DNA of 64,000 nt from a virus, in IMG/VR virus record IMGVR_UViG_3300005688_000028, positions 1 through 64,000 of that record. One strand, written 5' to 3'. The notes beneath the pieces are model-generated. The model was not told where the DNA came from, ran no database searches, and saw only the letters and a list, made by a program, of their open reading frames with translations. Of the stretch, positions 5-25,604 are shown piece by piece (positions within the stretch are counted from its first letter, which is position 1; each line of letters begins with the position of its first letter). Made by a program: the position numbers and the translations under genes.

Positions 5-781
5 GTGGCGGTCGACGGGGCGGTCCGCGGGGCGGTCGACGGGGCGGTCCGCGGGGCGGTCCGCGGGGACCAAAACACGATCCTACGGGCCGCAGGGTTC
101 CTCGTCCGCTGCGCACTCCGCTGGTACGGTCTATACCGAGGCGGGTCAGTCTGGCCGTCGTGGCCCGCGTTCATTTCCTGGTTCCGCGAGGCTGGCCTTG
201 AGATCGACTGGTCCAACTGGCTCTACGAAGAGATGGCGTGCGCTCACGGTGGGGCTCGGTTCTACCACCGTGAGTTTTGGATCGTGTGTGACCGACCCAC
301 GACCATCGGTCGCGATGATCAGAACCGGCCGCACTGCGATACTGGGCCCCAGATCGCCTGGAGCGACGGGTGGGCCGACTGGTACATCCACGGCGTGAGA
401 GTGCCACGTCAGGTGGTCGAGGCCCCCGAGACGCTTACCGCCCAGCAGATCAAAGAAGAGACGAACGCCGAGGTGCGCCGCGTCATGCTGGGGCGCTTCG
501 GTGAAGCTCGATATCTGACCGAGATCGGCGCCAAAAAGATCCATGAGGACGATTTTGGCGAGCTTTATCGGGCCGAACTCGAAGGCGACGAGCCGCTCGT
601 GATGGTGCGCGTGCTCAACAGCACGCCTGAGCCCGACGGGTCGATCAAGCCGTACTGGCTCCGCGTAGATCCGACCTGCACGACCGCCCAGGAGGCCATC
701 GCCTCTACCTGGCGATACTCTGACACGGGAGAGCGGGTGTTTCCTCGCGCCTCCGACTATCGCCCAACCATCGAAACCTGA
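5..781 (+). CDS. DUF6745-family phage protein (5' truncated by window edge)
   Basis: PHCDTGPQIAWSDGW..WYIHGV, NAEVRRVM and VLNSTPEPDGSIKPYWLRV motifs; N-terminal AVDG/AVRG repeats typical of the family. Confidence 0.75.
   Translation: MAVDGAVRGAVDGAVRGAVRGDQNTILRAAGFLVRCALRWYGLYRGGSVWPSWPAFISWFREAGLEIDWSNWLYEEMACAHGGARFYHREFWIVCDRPTTIGRDDQNRPHCDTGPQIAWSDGWADWYIHGVRVPRQVVEAPETLTAQQIKEETNAEVRRVMLGRFGEARYLTEIGAKKIHEDDFGELYRAELEGDEPLVMVRVLNSTPEPDGSIKPYWLRVDPTCTTAQEAIASTWRYSDTGERVFPRASDYRPTIET
8..67 (+). repeat. 12-bp tandem coding repeat GCGGTC(GAC/CGC)GGG (AVDG/AVRG)
   Basis: five consecutive units visible at the window start. Confidence 0.85.
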
Positions 782-4671: not shown

Positions 4672-5100
4672 ATGACCGAGCACAAGATAGACCTCGACCT
4701 GGTGGAGCTGCGGTGCAAGCTGCGGGGGTGGCAGTACTTGCGGCGGGAGGACGGCGCCATCTACGGCGGGTGGGGCATCGCCACGCCGGACGGCATTACC
4801 GCCGCGTCGCCCGCTTGGGAGTTCGTCTTTGAGGAGCTTGGCCGCCCCCGCCTGACCCTCGCGGAAATCGTGGCGAGCCCGCCGGAGGGGTGGCGGGTTG
4901 CCTCGCGTGGGCGAGATGTGACTGCATTCGTGTGGCGCACGAAGTACGATATGCCAGACGGCTCATTGAGCGATGGGGCCTGCGTCATCTGGCATAGTCG
5001 GGGTCACACAACTGAGGCCGTCGGTGCCCGCGAACCGAACAAGGCCGCCGCCCACCGCGCCGTGGCCGAGCTGCTCGTGCTGCTCGGGGAGGTGGAGTGA
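4672..5100 (+). CDS. hypothetical protein
   Basis: operonic spacing, GGAG SD. Confidence 0.6.
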   Translation: MTEHKIDLDLVELRCKLRGWQYLRREDGAIYGGWGIATPDGITAASPAWEFVFEELGRPRLTLAEIVASPPEGWRVASRGRDVTAFVWRTKYDMPDGSLSDGACVIWHSRGHTTEAVGAREPNKAAAHRAVAELLVLLGEVE

Positions 5101-13626: not shown

Positions 13627-13636
13627 GTGAACCTTC
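13627..13636 (-). promoter_or_regulatory. late-promoter box variant GAAGGTTCAC
   Basis: 33 nt upstream of ATG 13593; AGCAT -10-like element. Confidence 0.55.
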
Positions 13637-16382: not shown

Positions 16383-17899
16383 CAGGGCTTCTTCTTGTGG
16401 ACCGTGACGCGGATGAAGTTGAGGCTGATTTCGCCCAGGGCGGTCGGGCTCTGCGCCATCGCCTTGATGTCAATGTCGCCCGAGTAGTCGTCAGCGCGAA
16501 CGTTGACGCCCGCGAACTGGCTCGCGGCGCCCACCGAAGCCGCTGCGGCACCGGGGCCTTCGAGGACGTTGCAGACGTAGCTCTGCGAGTTGGGGCCGAC
16601 GCCGATGATGGTGATTCGGTAGCGGAACTCGATGAGGACGGCGGCCGTCGTCGTGGTGTGCGTCAGGATGTTGGCGCCTTCCACCTGAAGCCAAGCCGTC
16701 TTGGAGTTGGTGTTGTTGGCGCACGAAAAGCGCATGTAGACGTCGATGAAATCACCGACGGCGCCGATGGTCCCGCCCGGGATCGTGAAGTCTCGCAGGC
16801 TCTCGGGCGTGGTCCCTGTCGTGGCCGCTGCCAGATACTCGCTCAGGATCGCCCGGTCGTAGCCGTCGACCAGCCCGTCTTTGATAAGCAGACCATCGAT
16901 CGTGACACCCGCCGCCGCCGTGGCTTCGTTGATGGTGTCGGTCTGGATGACCTCGGCCTTGAGGTCGTAGGTGTGCGTTCCGCGCCCCTTGACCTCGATG
17001 CCTGCATTGTTCGTGTCCGACTGGATGATGTCGGTCCGAAGGTCTGCGTCGTGAGTCCCGCGCCCCCGCACGGTCACCTGGCCGTTCGTCGAGCGCGACT
17101 GTATCCAGTCCGTGGTCAGGTCGGATTCTGCCGCAAGGCCGCCGCTGATTTCGACGGCGCCGTTCTTCAGGTGGACCTTGGAGAAGCCGGATCCCAGCGT
17201 GGCGAGCCGGTTGAGGATGATGTCTTTGTCGGCCACGCCGTTGAGGTGGGCGCAAGTGTTCGAGTCGTAATCGCCCGTCAGGACCGCCGGAGTCGACGGG
17301 AACGCGCTGTTGACGAGCTCGATGTCGCCCGTCACCGTGAGGTCGCCGATCTCGGTCTCGGGGATCGTCTCGTGCGTGTGGAGCGCGCTCGCGTCCGAGG
17401 TCGAGCCCGCAAGCAGCGGCGCCACGTCGCCTGCGAGCTCATCCACGAGCCCGACGAAGTCCCCAAACTTCGCCCGCCAATTGCGCTCCCACGCGGACGG
17501 GATCTCCGCGTCCAGGTGCTCGGTCTTCACCGACACCACCACGAAGGCCGAATCCGGGGCCGCACGCGGGTCCGCGACGCTCACATACTCGGCGTTGTCC
17601 TCGTGCTCCCACGGGTCCGGCGTGAGGCCCGCATCGAAGCGGTTGTCGGCCACCTGCACGAAGACGATCACCCCGCCCGGGGTGTCGATGTCGGTGAGGT
17701 TCGGGTTCGCGATGGCGTTGTTCGAGAGCGCCGCACTCGAGCTCGTGGGCTTGTCGAGGATCCACGACCGATAGTGCGTGATGCTCGACCCACCCGTGCC
17801 CGGGGTGCCGCTGAACGAGAGCGCCTGCGAGGCTACGGGCAGGTCCGTGAAGGGCTTTGCGGCGGGCCATGTTCCGGCGATTGCGATGGGTCGGGCCAT
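16382..17899 (-). CDS. tail fibre / receptor-binding protein
   Basis: N-terminal PKD-like W....P..S.A.L; internal (V/I).V.GRGTH..DL..D.IQ.D repeats. Confidence 0.65.
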   Translation of the reverse strand: MARPIAIAGTWPAAKPFTDLPVASQALSFSGTPGTGGSSITHYRSWILDKPTSSSAALSNNAIANPNLTDIDTPGGVIVFVQVADNRFDAGLTPDPWEHEDNAEYVSVADPRAAPDSAFVVVSVKTEHLDAEIPSAWERNWRAKFGDFVGLVDELAGDVAPLLAGSTSDASALHTHETIPETEIGDLTVTGDIELVNSAFPSTPAVLTGDYDSNTCAHLNGVADKDIILNRLATLGSGFSKVHLKNGAVEISGGLAAESDLTTDWIQSRSTNGQVTVRGRGTHDADLRTDIIQSDTNNAGIEVKGRGTHTYDLKAEVIQTDTINEATAAAGVTIDGLLIKDGLVDGYDRAILSEYLAAATTGTTPESLRDFTIPGGTIGAVGDFIDVYMRFSCANNTNSKTAWLQVEGANILTHTTTTAAVLIEFRYRITIIGVGPNSQSYVCNVLEGPGAAAASVGAASQFAGVNVRADDYSGDIDIKAMAQSPTALGEISLNFIRVTVHKKKP

Positions 17900-17909
17900 G
17901 GGCTCCCCC

Positions 17910-19298
17910 TCAAGTCGAGGCGTTCAGATTGATGGTGTTCGGGTAGAGCTTCGTTTGCGGCGTGGCCGGATACAGGTTCTCGGCCGGCGTCGAGATCCGG
18001 ATGTCGAGGACGCCCGCGACCCGCCGAAGCTCGGCCAAGAGCTGGAACAGGATGAGCGGCTTGCCGGGCGCAAGCGCCTGCATGAAGCCGGTGATCTCGT
18101 CGATGACCCGCGCCTCGACCTCGTTGAAGCTGAAGCCCTCTTCGATGACCATGAAGCCGGCGATGTCGATGCTCTGAAGGTCCGGCGCGACCACCCGGAG
18201 ACGACCACCCGGGACGCGCCATCCGGGCGCCCGCGAGGCCAACGTGATGAGCCCTTCGATGGCAGCCTGAAGCTCCGCGATGAAGCCCGTGAAGACGCTG
18301 TAGCCGAAGACCTTGACGGCCTTGCCGCCGATCGCCATCTGCGCCGAGTCCGGGTGAAGCTGCGCCACGCCCCGCTCATGCAGCGTGACCCACTCGCGCG
18401 AGCCCGCGGGGATCTCGACCGTGTCGATCGACACCCGCGGAGTCGTGGCCGCCGGTCCCTCGAAGTGGAACGAGAGCAGGCCCCCGCTCGGGGTGGTGAA
18501 GTTGACTTCGGCGCCCGCCCGCGTGGCACTCTGGAAGCCCGTCCCGTCGTCCACGACGAGCAGGGCATAGGCCGGGTTGTTCGCGTCCTCGACGATGAAG
18601 GCGTGGATCGCCCGAGTCCCGTCTTCGGCCTGGAAGACGCGGGCCAGGTACTCGGCCGCGGGCTTGCTCGTCTGCGCGAGGCTCGCCTGGTAGTTGAGCG
18701 CCCGCCACCGAAGCTGGTCGTCACTCTCGAGGAGGCGCCCGCCCGAAAGCCTGCGGAGGTTCGTGCAAGCCACGATCGCCGTGACCGGGCTGAAGGTGAT
18801 GACCGAGACGGCACCGGCCGGCGCGTTGCCCTGGTCGCCCAGCGTGAGGCACACGACGCGCACGGGCTCTTGCCCCGTGGCCGGATAGACGAGCTGCCCG
18901 TCCGCGAAGGTGAACGCCTCGGTGGTGATGTACTCGACGTTGGGGTTCGACCTCAGCGCGACCCTGATTCCCGCTGGCACGTCGAGCGCCCCGGAACCGC
19001 TCTGACGCTCGAAGCTCATCGCGGCGCCCGAGGCCGCACTCGGCCCAAGGCGTGGCTCCATGCCGAGGATCTGCGCCACGCGCTCGTCGAGGTCGGTGCC
19101 CCGGCCGTTGAGCTGGAAGGCCCGGAGAAGGCCGGCAATCCGGGTGTCGGTCAGTGCCCCTTGGAGCGCCACGAGGCCCATGATGGTGTGGGCCCCGCCG
19201 CCTTCTTCGAGGTCGGTGATCTCGCCGTTGCTCTGCGCGATGAGCTGCGCCATGAGCTCGGCGCGGATCTCGTCGGCCGTTCTGGGCTCGAAGGGCAT
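17910..19298 (-). CDS. baseplate J-like protein
   Basis: ITDLEEGG, G.DLD, VPAG, C...G..GN...G, GG...ESDDQLR.R. Confidence 0.9.
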   Translation of the reverse strand: MPFEPRTADEIRAELMAQLIAQSNGEITDLEEGGGAHTIMGLVALQGALTDTRIAGLLRAFQLNGRGTDLDERVAQILGMEPRLGPSAASGAAMSFERQSGSGALDVPAGIRVALRSNPNVEYITTEAFTFADGQLVYPATGQEPVRVVCLTLGDQGNAPAGAVSVITFSPVTAIVACTNLRRLSGGRLLESDDQLRWRALNYQASLAQTSKPAAEYLARVFQAEDGTRAIHAFIVEDANNPAYALLVVDDGTGFQSATRAGAEVNFTTPSGGLLSFHFEGPAATTPRVSIDTVEIPAGSREWVTLHERGVAQLHPDSAQMAIGGKAVKVFGYSVFTGFIAELQAAIEGLITLASRAPGWRVPGGRLRVVAPDLQSIDIAGFMVIEEGFSFNEVEARVIDEITGFMQALAPGKPLILFQLLAELRRVAGVLDIRISTPAENLYPATPQTKLYPNTINLNAST

Positions 19299-19316
19299 CG
19301 CGGCATCCCTGGTGTT

Positions 19317-19392
19317 TGGATGCAGGGGCCGGACTCGAACCGGCGACCTCTGGGGTATGAGCCCTGCGCGCTACCAACTGCGCCACCCTGCT
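19317..19392 (-). tRNA. tRNA-Met(CAT), initiator-like, CCA encoded
   Basis: AGCAGGG TG GCGC AGTTGGTA GCGC G CAGGG CTCATAC CCCAG AGGTC GCCGG TTCGAGT CCGGC CCCTGCA T CCA; 1:72 mismatch and GGG/CCC anticodon stem. Confidence 0.92.
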
Positions 19393-19423
19393 GCGGCCAT
19401 CGTGCATAGGGGTCGGCGGGGTG

Positions 19424-19433
19424 GTGAGCTTTC
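19424..19433 (-). promoter_or_regulatory. late-promoter box GAAAGCTCAC (tRNA/baseplate J unit)
   Basis: exact motif; CACGAT -10; 31 nt to tRNA nucleotide 1. Confidence 0.75.
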
Positions 19434-19436
19434 GCG

Positions 19437-21116
19437 TCAGGTCGGGAACGGCCGCACGACCTCGATCGTCGCGCCCGCCGCGGTGCGCACCGAGAACTCA
19501 GCCTCGAACCGCCCGCCCGTCTGCGCCACGCGCATATCGGTGACGGCACGCACGCGGTTGTCGCGCTTCATCTGCGCCCGCGTCTCGAAGCCGATCATGC
19601 CGACGGTGCCCGCCTTGGCGCCCTCGCCGATGAGGGGCGGCAAACCCCACTCGGGGAACACGATGTTTGCGCCCTTGGTCGCCAAGAGGCGCCGCGTCAA
19701 CGCTTGGTCGAGGTTGTCCTCGCCGCGCACGCGGGCGAACTCCGTGGTGCCCTCGATCACGAGGTTGTCGTCGGCGTCGATCGCCAGGTCCACGCCGAAC
19801 AGCTCGGGCGACTGTCCCGCCTGCACGCCCTGCGGCGACGGAGCGCGGAGCATGAGCCCCGGGGTCAGCGGCCCGCCGTCGGGCGCCTCGAACGGGCTCG
19901 CCATGCCGTTGAGGCTCAGAAGCTCGCTCCACCGGGAGGCGTCGCCGAGGACTCGAGCCGCGAAGGCCGGCAGGGTCTCGCCCTGCTCCAAGGGCACGGA
20001 CACCACGGGGCGGCCGTCGACCACGCCATAGGTCCGGTCGGCCGGCGTGCCCCCCACGGCCCGATTCTCTCGCGGGACGTATCGACCGCCTGCCTGGCCG
20101 AGCGTCGCCAGCGCCTTCGCGCGGGCGTTCTCGATGCTGCCATAGGCGCCCATGAACCACTTGCGGGCTTCGGCCCTACCGGCCCCGAGCGGGACCGCGT
20201 CGGCGAAGGCTTCCAAGACCTCGACGGAGTCCACGGCCGCGTCGATGATCTGGTTCGTCACGACGGCCGGGAAGCGGACGTAGGATCGGAGCACGCCAGC
20301 GGCCTCTTTGGCGCTCCGACAGACCGAGGTGAAGTCGTCGAGCGGGGCCTTGAACTGCGCCCACCGGGCCGGCAGCTCGTCTCGGATCTCTGCGAGCGAG
20401 GCCAGGGTCACGGTGTCGGTGGGGCGCTCGTCGAGCACGTCCATGTTCAGGACGCTCATGGGTCGGCGCTCGTCGAGCTCGGCGAGATTGAGCACTCCCT
20501 CGTCGTCGTAGTAGTCGATCTCCTCCAATGGGATAATGGCTTTCACCGCGACGTCCAGCGCCTTGTCGGCCGCCTGTTGCTTCGCGGGTCCGCTCACGGG
20601 TGCGGGCTTCGCGTCGCTCACGAGACCGCGCGTGACCAGCTCGAGGGTGAAGCTCCGAATCGTCCGGGCGCCCTCGGTGTCCCGCACCGGGACGAAGCTC
20701 ATGATCTCGACGAACCAAGCCTCGTCGTTGGCCTCGTCCTGCATGGAGCGGAACACGAGGCGCGGGGCCTTCGCGGGGTCGCGGGAGATCGCGCCCTCGT
20801 AGAGCTTGCCCTCGGCCTCGAAGCGCTTGATGAACTCGACGAACTCCACCATGTGGGCGCGGCCGTCGAGCTCGGTCGCGACGCCGTCGCGGTTGAAGAC
20901 GGGGAAGCGCTTTGCGCCGCCTGATGTGCCGGCGAGGGAGATCGGGAACTCGCGGAAGCCGCTCTTCTGCTCGATCGGCCGGTCGCCGAGCGTCCACTCG
21001 GACACGCGCGCGGGCTGGTAGGCCGGGACGTACCGGGACACGGGCGGGACCACCATGGAGCGAACGGGCTCGCCCGTGACGTGGACCTCGAGCAGAAACC
21101 GGACGTCAGTCGCCAT
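19437..21116 (-). CDS. fused tube-initiator / LysM / gp25-like baseplate protein
   Basis: GETL..FAAR.LGD..RW..L..LNG LysM; C-terminal FGVDL...V.GEDNL.QAL..RL...KG.....P.WG. Confidence 0.7.
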   Translation of the reverse strand: MATDVRFLLEVHVTGEPVRSMVVPPVSRYVPAYQPARVSEWTLGDRPIEQKSGFREFPISLAGTSGGAKRFPVFNRDGVATELDGRAHMVEFVEFIKRFEAEGKLYEGAISRDPAKAPRLVFRSMQDEANDEAWFVEIMSFVPVRDTEGARTIRSFTLELVTRGLVSDAKPAPVSGPAKQQAADKALDVAVKAIIPLEEIDYYDDEGVLNLAELDERRPMSVLNMDVLDERPTDTVTLASLAEIRDELPARWAQFKAPLDDFTSVCRSAKEAAGVLRSYVRFPAVVTNQIIDAAVDSVEVLEAFADAVPLGAGRAEARKWFMGAYGSIENARAKALATLGQAGGRYVPRENRAVGGTPADRTYGVVDGRPVVSVPLEQGETLPAFAARVLGDASRWSELLSLNGMASPFEAPDGGPLTPGLMLRAPSPQGVQAGQSPELFGVDLAIDADDNLVIEGTTEFARVRGEDNLDQALTRRLLATKGANIVFPEWGLPPLIGEGAKAGTVGMIGFETRAQMKRDNRVRAVTDMRVAQTGGRFEAEFSVRTAAGATIEVVRPFPT

Positions 21117-21144
21117 GGCGTCATGTTCCATGCGGCCCCGGTGG

Positions 21145-21173
21145 CGGGTGAGCTTTCCGCGAAAGCTCCCGCT
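21145..21173. promoter_or_regulatory. back-to-back divergent late boxes (GTGAGCTTTC-cgc-GAAAGCTCCC)
   Basis: inverted pair; 31 nt to ATG 21116 (-) and 32 nt to ATG 21203 (+). Confidence 0.75.
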
Positions 21174-21202
21174 TGGCGGCGGGCCTGTGGACGATCGGCC
21201 GC

Positions 21203-22384
21203 ATGGCGAACGAAACCCCGATCGGCGACCTTGTTCAGCTCGATGATGACGAGCGCCTCGACATCCCCGATGCGAGGCGGCTTCAGAGCTTCGTCTACGA
21301 AGCGCTCGCGGATGCGATCGGGGGCACCTTCGGGCCGTGCCATGGCGTCCTGAGTGAGCCCGCCTTCGGGACCGCCGTGAGTGCGGTCACGATCGGCGAA
21401 TGCGTCCTCGTCGGCATCAAGGCCGCGACGGGAGGCACAAAGCGCTTCCGGGGTGGCGTGTTCCCCTACAACCCCGCGAGCAGCTACCAAGCCGGCAACA
21501 CCACGGTCAACCTGAGCGCCTACCAGAGCCCCGAGGCGTTCCCGTACCTGTGGTTCTGTCGCCGGGAGCTCGAGGCGAACATCGAGACCCGCGTTCGTCA
21601 CGTCGGCGGCGTCGAGTCCACCTATCCGCCCAAGACGACGCGGCGGCAATACTTCGGCTTCGGGGCGACCACGGATTTCAGCACCCCGCCCAACGAGACC
21701 GAGGACTGGTTCATCTTCGCGCGCGTCACGGGGTGGAGCGGGGTGTTCCCGAACAAGGTTCCGACGATCGAGCCGGTCCACATCTTCGACAAGGGCAAGC
21801 TGCTCGGGCTCTACGGGACCGCCTCGAACTACCTCGGGGCGTACATGATGGACCAGGACGGCGGCGCGGCCATCGCGCAGGCCATGGGCCTCCTGTCGCA
21901 CTTCATTCTGCGGCTCACCTCGAACACGCACACATTCGACCCGAGCACGCTCGAAGACCTCGCGGCGACGAGCGCGACCTTCGAGCCGGACCCGGCGGTC
22001 CGCGGCATCATGGAGCTGCATGATGATCTCGAGGTCGTTGAGGAGATCGTCAACAACCAGCCGGTGATGCTGGCTTGGGGCTACATCCAGGCCGATGGGG
22101 CGCTTACGGGCGACAACTTCACGGGCATGAACAAGCGCCAAGTCGCAGCCTCGGCCGACTCGAAGCCCGGAACAGGCGAATACAGCCTCAAGGTCAAGGC
22201 GGCCTCGGTGGCGGCGGTCCACGTCACCTTGAGGGCCAGCGCCAGCGACCCGAGCTTCGTCAACAACCCCTCGTGCGTCGTGGGCGGGGGTAACGCGACC
22301 ATCGGGATCAATGTGTTCAACCTCGCAGGCTCGCAGGCCGACCGGCCCCTTTGGGTCACCGTCTGGGGCACCCCAGCGTCCTAA
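21203..22384 (+). CDS. putative virion/baseplate protein on the opposite strand
   Basis: late box; L.D.ERLDIPD N-terminus; C-terminal beta domain (AWGYI...GTGEY). Confidence 0.65.
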   Translation: MANETPIGDLVQLDDDERLDIPDARRLQSFVYEALADAIGGTFGPCHGVLSEPAFGTAVSAVTIGECVLVGIKAATGGTKRFRGGVFPYNPASSYQAGNTTVNLSAYQSPEAFPYLWFCRRELEANIETRVRHVGGVESTYPPKTTRRQYFGFGATTDFSTPPNETEDWFIFARVTGWSGVFPNKVPTIEPVHIFDKGKLLGLYGTASNYLGAYMMDQDGGAAIAQAMGLLSHFILRLTSNTHTFDPSTLEDLAATSATFEPDPAVRGIMELHDDLEVVEEIVNNQPVMLAWGYIQADGALTGDNFTGMNKRQVAASADSKPGTGEYSLKVKAASVAAVHVTLRASASDPSFVNNPSCVVGGGNATIGINVFNLAGSQADRPLWVTVWGTPAS

Positions 22385-25594: not shown

Positions 25595-25604
25595 GTGAGC
25601 TTTC
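25595..25604 (-). promoter_or_regulatory. late-promoter box GAAAGCTCAC
   Basis: exact; CACTAT -10; 32 nt to ATG 25562. Confidence 0.75.

Follow-up and report, generated by a model that had tools for sequence, protein, structure and literature searches.

The virus record IMGVR_UViG_3300005688_000028 (IMG/VR) is a phage contig of 91,633 bp with direct terminal repeats and a G+C content of 67.8%. We analyzed its first 64 kb (positions 1 to 64,000, hereafter the window), in which a gene for tRNA-Met(CAT) lies between two baseplate genes. The explanation that accounts best for this locus, and in which we place about even confidence, is that the gene encodes a divergent initiator-type tRNA that was recently gained, that its first nucleotide (A1) coincides with the predicted start point (+1) of a structural-gene promoter, and that part of the tRNA would be made without a 5′ leader. 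A preliminary description of the window had proposed an initiator-type tRNA apparently transcribed leaderless from its own late promoter. The observation behind this proposal was confirmed, its interpretation is partly supported, and the proposal as a whole is plausible at the level of sequence.

The tRNA gene was located by ARAGORN at positions 19392 to 19317 on the minus strand (76 nucleotides, nt) with a genome-encoded CCA, and it is the sole tRNA gene of the window and of the whole 91,633-bp genome. It scored 55.8 bits against Rfam RF00005, and Infernal flagged 1:72 and 28:42 as non-standard pairs. The minimum-energy fold is cloverleaf-like, with a fold z-score of −1.1. The gene occupies a 138-nt gap. 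On the upstream side of the gap, a box with the sequence GAAAGCTCAC (19433 to 19424, minus strand; about −41 to −32 relative to tRNA nucleotide 1) starts 3 nt past the stop codon of the upstream baseplate gene, and 31 nt separate it from A1, which is the 32nd nucleotide after the box. A −10-like hexamer, CACGAT (19404 to 19399), lies 19 nt after the box, its T being 7 nt before tRNA nucleotide 1, and is followed by the G+C-only stretch ggccgc (19398 to 19393), which provides a C at −1. On the other side, the CCA ends at 19317, and an 18-nt spacer (AACACCAGGGATGCCGCG, 19316 to 19299) with a weak Shine-Dalgarno-like GGGA at 19309-19306 separates it from the ATG of baseplate J at 19298-19296. Thus, the coordinates and distances given earlier for the tRNA, the box and the J start codon were all correct. 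So was the A1:A72 mismatch, as A1 stands opposite A72 by direct reading and the pair is among those flagged by Infernal.

The GAAAGCTCAC box is not confined to the tRNA gene. Nine exact copies were found in the genome; every one lies on the minus strand and the plus strand has none, with about 0.09 expected per strand under a first-order model. They start at 65917, 59789, 56204, 51874, 45690, 38399, 25604, 21157 and 19433, and variants with one or two mismatches face genes at 13636 (minus), 21161 (plus) and 25763 (plus). In a box-anchored alignment of these 12 sites, a hexamer ending in T lies 19-20 nt past the box at every site and conforms to NANNNT at 10 of them (CACGAT twice, CACTAT, GAACAT, GACGAT, GAAGAT, GATGCT, GAAGCT, CACAAT and GAGCAT; the other two are CCCAAT and TGCAAT). 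The CACGAT of the tRNA site is also that of the 38399 site. Behind the hexamer come 5-7 nt that are rich in G+C. Of the 11 protein units, 9 have an ATG or GTG in the slot 31-34 nt past the box as the start codon of an open reading frame (ORF) with 100 codons or more; the corresponding frequency at random positions is 4.7%. The modal distance of the start codon from the box is 33. These starts include the ATGs at 21116, 25562, 38357, 45647 and 56162 and the GTG at 65875. C is present at −1 in all 10 units whose predicted +1 falls on a start codon or on the tRNA, and +1 is A or G in each of them.

Shine-Dalgarno pairing is weak or missing at the box-linked starts (0 to −4.7 kcal), whereas operon-internal genes have GGAGG-type sites of −8 to −11 kcal. 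The exceptions are the 59789 and 51874 units, whose ATG is found 47 nt after the box, in the case of 51874 with a clear GAGG. Since the box units encode the portal, the prohead protease, baseplate proteins and other structural genes, with the tail sheath gene in the 38399 unit, the promoter would be a late one. The box is unlike TTGACA, the spacer between box and hexamer is 19-20 nt, and no sigma-70 consensus promoter (TTGACA, 16-18 nt, TATAAT) was found in 17500-21500. The simplest reading is that box and hexamer form a phage-specific late promoter whose +1 would be the first base of the start codon, so that the mRNAs would be leaderless. A late promoter with leaderless starts, as had been suggested for this phage, is thus supported by the box counts, the hexamer and the start codons without Shine-Dalgarno sites in the 31-34 slot. 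A1 had been placed exactly where the ATGs sit in the other units. It does lie in this slot, at the same distance of 32 as the ATG of the 21157 unit, but the slot is 4 nt wide and its mode is 33.

The boxes also form two divergent pairs. Those at 21157 (minus) and 21161 (plus) stand back to back (GTGAGCTTTCcgcGAAAGCTCCC), and those at 25604 (minus) and 25763 (plus) are about 150 nt apart. The plus-strand units of these pairs begin with ATG at 21203 and 25803, which are 33 and 31 nt after their boxes, respectively. When IMG/VR was scanned for the same promoter, 58 single hits were obtained, a number consistent with chance, and no convincing relative locus was found among them. Beyond the window, a helix-turn-helix resembling Sigma70_r4_2 (E = 1.1e-4, below the cut-off) was detected at 68078-68155 on the minus strand, in a 235-amino-acid ORF (67589-68296) that sits two genes upstream of the 65917 box. 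For this protein, either a small terminase or a late-promoter regulator is conceivable, and it is one candidate for the phage factor that would activate the box.

In Escherichia coli, the preferred start point of RNA polymerase is the 7th or 8th base downstream of the −10 element, and the preferred context is a purine at +1 preceded by a pyrimidine. A1, which follows a C, is the 7th base counted from CACGAT. By this preference for position and context, A1 is the best candidate for the start and G2 is the second. If the box is a promoter, the first base transcribed from it would most likely be that of the tRNA, an outcome to which we give an even to slightly better than even chance. The locus thereby has two of the features seen in leaderless tRNA genes of the Nanoarchaeum equitans type: a promoter whose fixed distance puts +1 at nucleotide 1, as judged by geometry, and a purine as the first nucleotide.

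We then consider whether the tRNA has the character of an initiator. The formylase mainly reads the unpaired 1×72 position (C1×A72 in E. coli), helped by A73, G2:C71, C3:G70 and G4:C69 (PMC9976931), and R11:Y24 (A11:U24) is a further recognition element (PMC9976931). The phage tRNA has a CAU anticodon at position 34 (ARAGORN). Its acceptor stem begins with A1×A72, G2:C71, C3:G70 and A4:U69 and the discriminator is U73. The D stem is GCGC/GCGC, which makes 11:24 a C:G pair. The anticodon stem consists of C27:G43, A28×A42 and G29-G31:C39-C41, and the loop is CUCAUAC, which places a C at position 38. Accordingly, the initiator determinants present are the 1×72 mismatch (A-A rather than C-A), G2:C71, C3:G70 and the three G:C pairs 29-31:39-41, while U73 and A4:U69 stand in place of A73 and G4:C69. 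The tRNA is best called initiator-like, with five deviations (A1, U73, C11:G24, C38 and A28×A42), and the label of initiator type thus holds for the mismatch and these G:C pairs but not for A73, R11:Y24 and G4:C69. An assignment to tRNA-Ile2, in which a CAU anticodon is read as Ile after lysidine modification and which would have a paired 1:72 and an anticodon stem of the elongator type, was rejected. BLAST against E. coli genomes matched only prophage tRNA-Ile genes; their similarity is limited to the T arm, and they have G1:C72 but lack GGG/CCC. In a search of the genome, no formyltransferase (Fmt), deformylase or IF1 was found in the phage; a functional initiator would therefore depend on host enzymes.

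The tRNA was compared with other viral tRNAs that have a GGG/CCC anticodon arm. The set consisted of 79 distinct sequences from IMG/VR, with the tRNA of the window included. The states at 1:72 were C-A in 26, U-A in 12, U-U in 10, A-A in 8, C-U in 8, A-C in 4, G-C in 4, G-A in 4, U-G in 2 and C-C in 1. A1×A72 is thus a recurrent minority state and not a peculiarity of this phage. U73 and C11 were each found in 7 sequences, A4:U69 in 16 and C38 in 15; the D stem was GAGC in 60 and GCGC in 7. A28×A42 was found in 1/79, namely the tRNA of the window. The closest phage tRNA is that of Erythrobacter phage R6L (88.8% identical). No match was obtained in an exact scan for the anticodon arm of the phage tRNA, and a host search with its 3′ half in 185,579 genomes returned a single, unrelated tRNA from a metagenome-assembled genome of Gammaproteobacteria.

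Promoter-like hexamers in front of tRNA genes were also counted in IMG/VR (loci L025-L130, for example L063, L079 and L095). A TA...T hexamer ending 7-8 nt before nucleotide 1 precedes 3 of 18 tRNAs with a purine at position 1 and 6 of 57 with a pyrimidine, the background being 2.8%. With gene boundaries from ARAGORN, a hexamer 5-9 nt upstream was found for 16 of the 77 initiator-like tRNAs that stand alone and for 18 of 109 among the remaining solitary ones, or about 15-20% of solitary tRNA genes, compared with about 8% at control offsets. As the hexamer is no commoner before purine-1 tRNAs, A1 alone is no mark of leaderless transcription. The preliminary description had reasoned that A1 lets the tRNA be made with a mature 5′ end. 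A1 does fit the predicted +1, but it recurs in 12 of the 79 sequences and is not tied to close hexamers. Close promoters are fairly common before phage tRNAs of all kinds, which makes the present arrangement more plausible and less special. In addition, three viral initiator genes have near-textbook −35/−10 pairs in which C1 is the 7th-8th base after the −10 element. Phages may often make tRNAs with very short leaders or none.

The tRNA appears to be a recent gain at this locus. At 14 viral and metagenomic loci with baseplate J homologues of 29-39% identity, J stands directly behind the upstream gene, and no tRNA is present there in any of them. Five related virus records, two of them complete genomes, were searched whole and contain no tRNA. 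Because the tRNA is missing from both the relatives' loci and these records, its recent acquisition is the conclusion we draw. Synteny in related phages had been named as a check on the arrangement; the distant relatives retain the order of upstream gene and J but have no tRNA between them. Closer baseplate J homologues exist, with 82%, 71% and about 55% identity. In the phage collection, baseplate J had no protein match, and the upstream baseplate gene had only distant Felix-O1/SPO1-like matches. Public runs with this phage come from bioreactor sludge of 2014-2015, and close variants come from wastewater of 2025; none of the runs listed with the locus is an RNA run. The 2025 wastewater contigs (two studies, 3-5% diverged) bridge the box and the tRNA, and no indel in 19299-19433 is among the differences listed. 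The arrangement is therefore stable at strain level.

A near-repeat flanks the tRNA on the minus strand, with GATGGCCGC (9 nt, 19393-19401) before A1 and GATGCCGCG (19299-19307) before the J ATG. The latter, GAT followed by six G/C bases (19307-19299), repeats the promoter-proximal stretch before tRNA nucleotide 1. GAT, six G/C bases and ATG occur together in 2 cases among the 2,214 ATGs of the genome, and one of these is the J start. In the less anchored (unanchored) alignment test, the near-repeat gave p = 0.03. The repeat suggests an origin in which the tRNA was inserted at the start point of a formerly leaderless J unit under this promoter. An insertion of this kind would account for the exact placement, and no selection for RNase P independence would have to be assumed. 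Furthermore, in a distant relative (locus L002), TAGTTT and 7 nt precede the baseplate J ATG just before position 5001, and there is no Shine-Dalgarno sequence. Baseplate J may be leaderless in other members of this phage group.

From these results, the following mechanism can be envisaged. Host RNA polymerase, redirected by a putative phage factor, would start at A1, and some of the tRNA molecules would therefore have a 5′ triphosphate and no 5′ leader from the outset. This transcript would also extend into baseplate J. A cut after the CCA would free the tRNA and leave a J mRNA with an 18-nt leader and the weak GGGA site, by analogy with E. coli RNase E, for which one-step cleavage after the CCA has been proposed in the case of the initiator tRNAs (PMC7049720). 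Transcripts of the upstream unit probably read through and would yield ordinary precursors that are trimmed by RNase P. Host enzymes presumably charge and formylate the phage tRNA, as the phage has none. The tRNA would then add to the initiator tRNA at the time when the leaderless late mRNAs appear. C38 may also protect it from host nucleases that cut initiator tRNA. An increase in formylmethionyl-tRNA (fMet-tRNA) strongly enhances the translation of leaderless mRNAs and only mildly that of mRNAs led by a Shine-Dalgarno sequence (review PMC9031893). Because fMet-tRNA favours leaderless translation, an initiator tRNA under a late promoter together with about ten leaderless late units would make a coherent arrangement. 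As a separate observation, the 3′ end of the tRNA, GCAUCC (G70-C75), has its complement, GGAUGC, in the spacer, where it covers the GGGA site of baseplate J (19303-19323, minus strand). This hairpin is present in the minimum-energy fold of a 123-nt transcript, the energy of which is no better than that of shuffled sequence.

Several observations weigh against a leaderless tRNA that starts at A1. The modal start, the 33rd nucleotide after the box, would be G2 and not A1. No terminator-like hairpin was found in 17.5-21.5 kb, and none lies between the tRNA and the upstream unit of the 21157 box; therefore, read-through precursors that need RNase P are expected. The claim that the tRNA is independent of RNase P is thus favoured by the geometry of A1 at the predicted +1, but it could apply to a part of the pool at most. 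The 5′ end at A1 is itself predicted from geometry. A1×A72 is carried by about 10% (8/79) of the viral initiator-like tRNAs, and tRNAs with C1 or U1 and non-initiator tRNAs have a −10-like hexamer at the right distance just as often. No sigma factor or activator was identified in the phage, and a Sigma70_r2 search of it gave no match. The tRNA is without A73, R11:Y24 and G4:C69 and has C38 and the A28×A42 mismatch, and its charging, formylation and initiator function are putative. We accordingly regard as doubtful the most far-reaching form of the proposal, in which the phage initiator tRNA is a primary transcript (ppp-A1, no leader, no RNase P) from the late promoter of leaderless structural mRNAs, the change from C1 to A1 is an adaptation to the purine-start preference of the polymerase, the tRNA is a dedicated booster of leaderless initiation, and the case is the first outside Nanoarchaeum and eukaryotic tRNA-Sec. 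It is possible, although on the unlikely side, that the placement is a historical accident. The tRNA would have been inserted at the junction of promoter and ATG of the once leaderless J unit, and RNase P would make its 5′ end. Transcription would then start a base or two off nucleotide 1 (at G2 or upstream, for example) or come mainly from read-through, and A1 would be one tolerated 1×72 mismatch. The missing terminator and the mode at the 33rd nucleotide are in agreement with such an accident, as are the direct repeat of GATGGCCGC and GATGCCGCG around the tRNA, the frequency of A1, G1 and U1 in viral initiator-like tRNAs, close hexamers that are not specific to purine-1 genes, and the normal occurrence of 3-8-nt tRNA leaders in E. 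coli (PMC7049720). However, no base is a better candidate for the start than A1, which follows a C and stands 7th after the hexamer, whereas G2 would have a purine at −1, and the whole promoter, including the G+C-only stretch and the C at −1, has been kept as in the leaderless units.

The function of the tRNA may also lie elsewhere. As a spare initiator tRNA with an altered anticodon arm (C38 and A28×A42), it might resist a host VapC-type toxin, with the link to leaderless mRNAs being incidental; we hold this as a tentative possibility, which is compatible with a tRNA starting at +1. The enteric VapC cuts tRNA-fMet between A38 and C39 (PMC4105405), so that C38 is at the scissile bond, and phage tRNAs have been proposed to evade anticodon nucleases through changes in the loop (PMC10264068). 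C38 (window position 19355) recurs in 15 distinct viral initiator-like tRNAs from 26 IMG/VR loci (L025-L050), and this tRNA is the sole one that the phage keeps. In contrast, the closest tRNA, that of phage R6L, has A28×A42 but A38. Thus, the functional link to the leaderless programme drawn in the preliminary description is weakened, as C38 points to escape from anticodon nucleases. C38 may affect cleavage or initiation. It is improbable that the tRNA is no working initiator, being either in decay or chiefly of use to the mRNA of the baseplate J operon, as a structured 5′ cap and a signal for processing. Its five deviations from the viral initiator consensus, each present in 1-19% of the 79 sequences, the fold z-score of only −1.1 and the possible pairing of the 3′ end with the spacer over GGGA would fit this reading. 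Nevertheless, the cloverleaf is intact, the CCA is encoded, the Rfam score is 55.8 bits, and the tRNA was kept in strains sampled 10 years apart; A28×A42 is tolerated in that it is common to phage R6L, and the spacer pairing is not significant. The least probable alternative is that the GAAAGCTCAC box is no promoter element but an operator or RNA-level signal, with transcripts starting elsewhere. The lack of a sigma-70 consensus match, of a sigma factor and of relatives with the box is in line with this alternative, but it sits poorly with the strict orientation of the box, its fixed distance to the hexamer and to start codons without Shine-Dalgarno sites (9 of 11 units), and the two divergent pairs.

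The preferred reading, a partly leaderless initiator-type tRNA, can be compared with known systems. In full-text literature searches, no bacterial or phage tRNA that is leaderless by promoter placement was found; in the papers retrieved, such tRNAs are described only for N. equitans and for eukaryotic tRNA-Sec. The leaderless tRNA genes of N. equitans (PMC10100707) resemble the phage gene in the fixed promoter distance and the purine, and in what is predicted for the phage gene: +1 at tRNA position +1, a 5′-triphosphate and no leader. In contrast, the present case is one tRNA of a bacterial virus rather than a whole tRNA set, with a bacterial-type promoter and a predicted 5′ end; its host almost certainly has RNase P, and read-through is expected. 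The eukaryotic tRNA[Ser]Sec gene (PMC6627462) is likewise a special-purpose tRNA gene with an upstream promoter, and its product is 5′-leaderless and processed only at the 3′ end. That gene is transcribed by RNA polymerase III with a TATA box and the proximal and distal sequence elements (PSE and DSE), whereas here a phage late promoter would be shared with protein units.

Initiator tRNA-fMet genes (E. coli metZ/metY, Stenotrophomonas phage vB_Sm_QDWS359 and Erythrobacter phage R6L) have the CAU anticodon, the 1×72 mismatch, G2:C71, C3:G70 and the three G:C pairs in common with the phage tRNA. The latter differs from them in A1 instead of C1, U73 instead of A73, C11:G24 instead of A11:U24, A4:U69, C38 instead of A38, and A28×A42. 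The R6L tRNA shares the GCGC D stem and A28×A42 but has C1, A38 and A73. With the leaderless mRNAs that are boosted by fMet-tRNA (lambda cI; PMC9031893), the phage shares starts without Shine-Dalgarno sequences at the predicted 5′ end, and here an initiator-type tRNA would come from the same promoter type; unlike in the lambda cI type, the coupling of the tRNA to the leaderless late programme is hypothetical. The likeness to nuclease-evading phage tRNAs (PMC10264068) and to the VapC system (PMC4105405) is the substitution in the anticodon loop at a known cleavage bond. In contrast, PMC10264068 reported that phages mostly avoid encoding tRNA-fMet. The locus can thus be placed under two kinds already known, phage initiator tRNAs and tRNAs sited at a promoter start, with a primary 5′ end inferred at A1. 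If this 5′ end is primary, the locus would be an example from the bacterial world of a tRNA made without RNase P. It would also be a concrete case of why some phages carry a single initiator-type tRNA: it could promote leaderless late mRNAs, make up for initiator tRNA cleaved by host toxins, or do both. If it is not, the gene would be an ordinary phage tRNA inserted at a promoter, and still a useful marker of an unusual late promoter.

The two genes that flank the tRNA are on the minus strand. Baseplate J (17910..19298, 462 amino acids; Pfam PF04865, E = 3.3e-11) is the first protein gene of the tRNA unit. Its start, MPFEPR, is conserved in homologues, and the G+C content at its third codon positions (GC3) is 0.90. 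The duplex energy of the GGGA before it is −4.9 kcal, compared with −8 to −11 for internal genes. The upstream baseplate protein gene (19437..21116, stop codon at 19439-19437) was assigned by phrog_975 (E = 1.3e-16). Its ATG (21116) lies 32 nt after its own box (21157..21148, minus strand), which is back to back with the variant box of the plus strand (21161-21170). A start at 21131, which would lengthen the gene, is possible. Two ORFs that overlap the tRNA, 18721-19407 (minus) and 17778-19409 (plus), were rejected as genes, their GC3 being 0.54 and 0.68 against 0.90 in real genes. Finally, a 12-nt tandem repeat, GGCGGTCCGCGG, is present in about five copies at window positions 7-68. A repeat of the same kind is found at the right end of the 91.6-kb contig, and GGCGGTCCGCGG is probably part of the terminal repeat.

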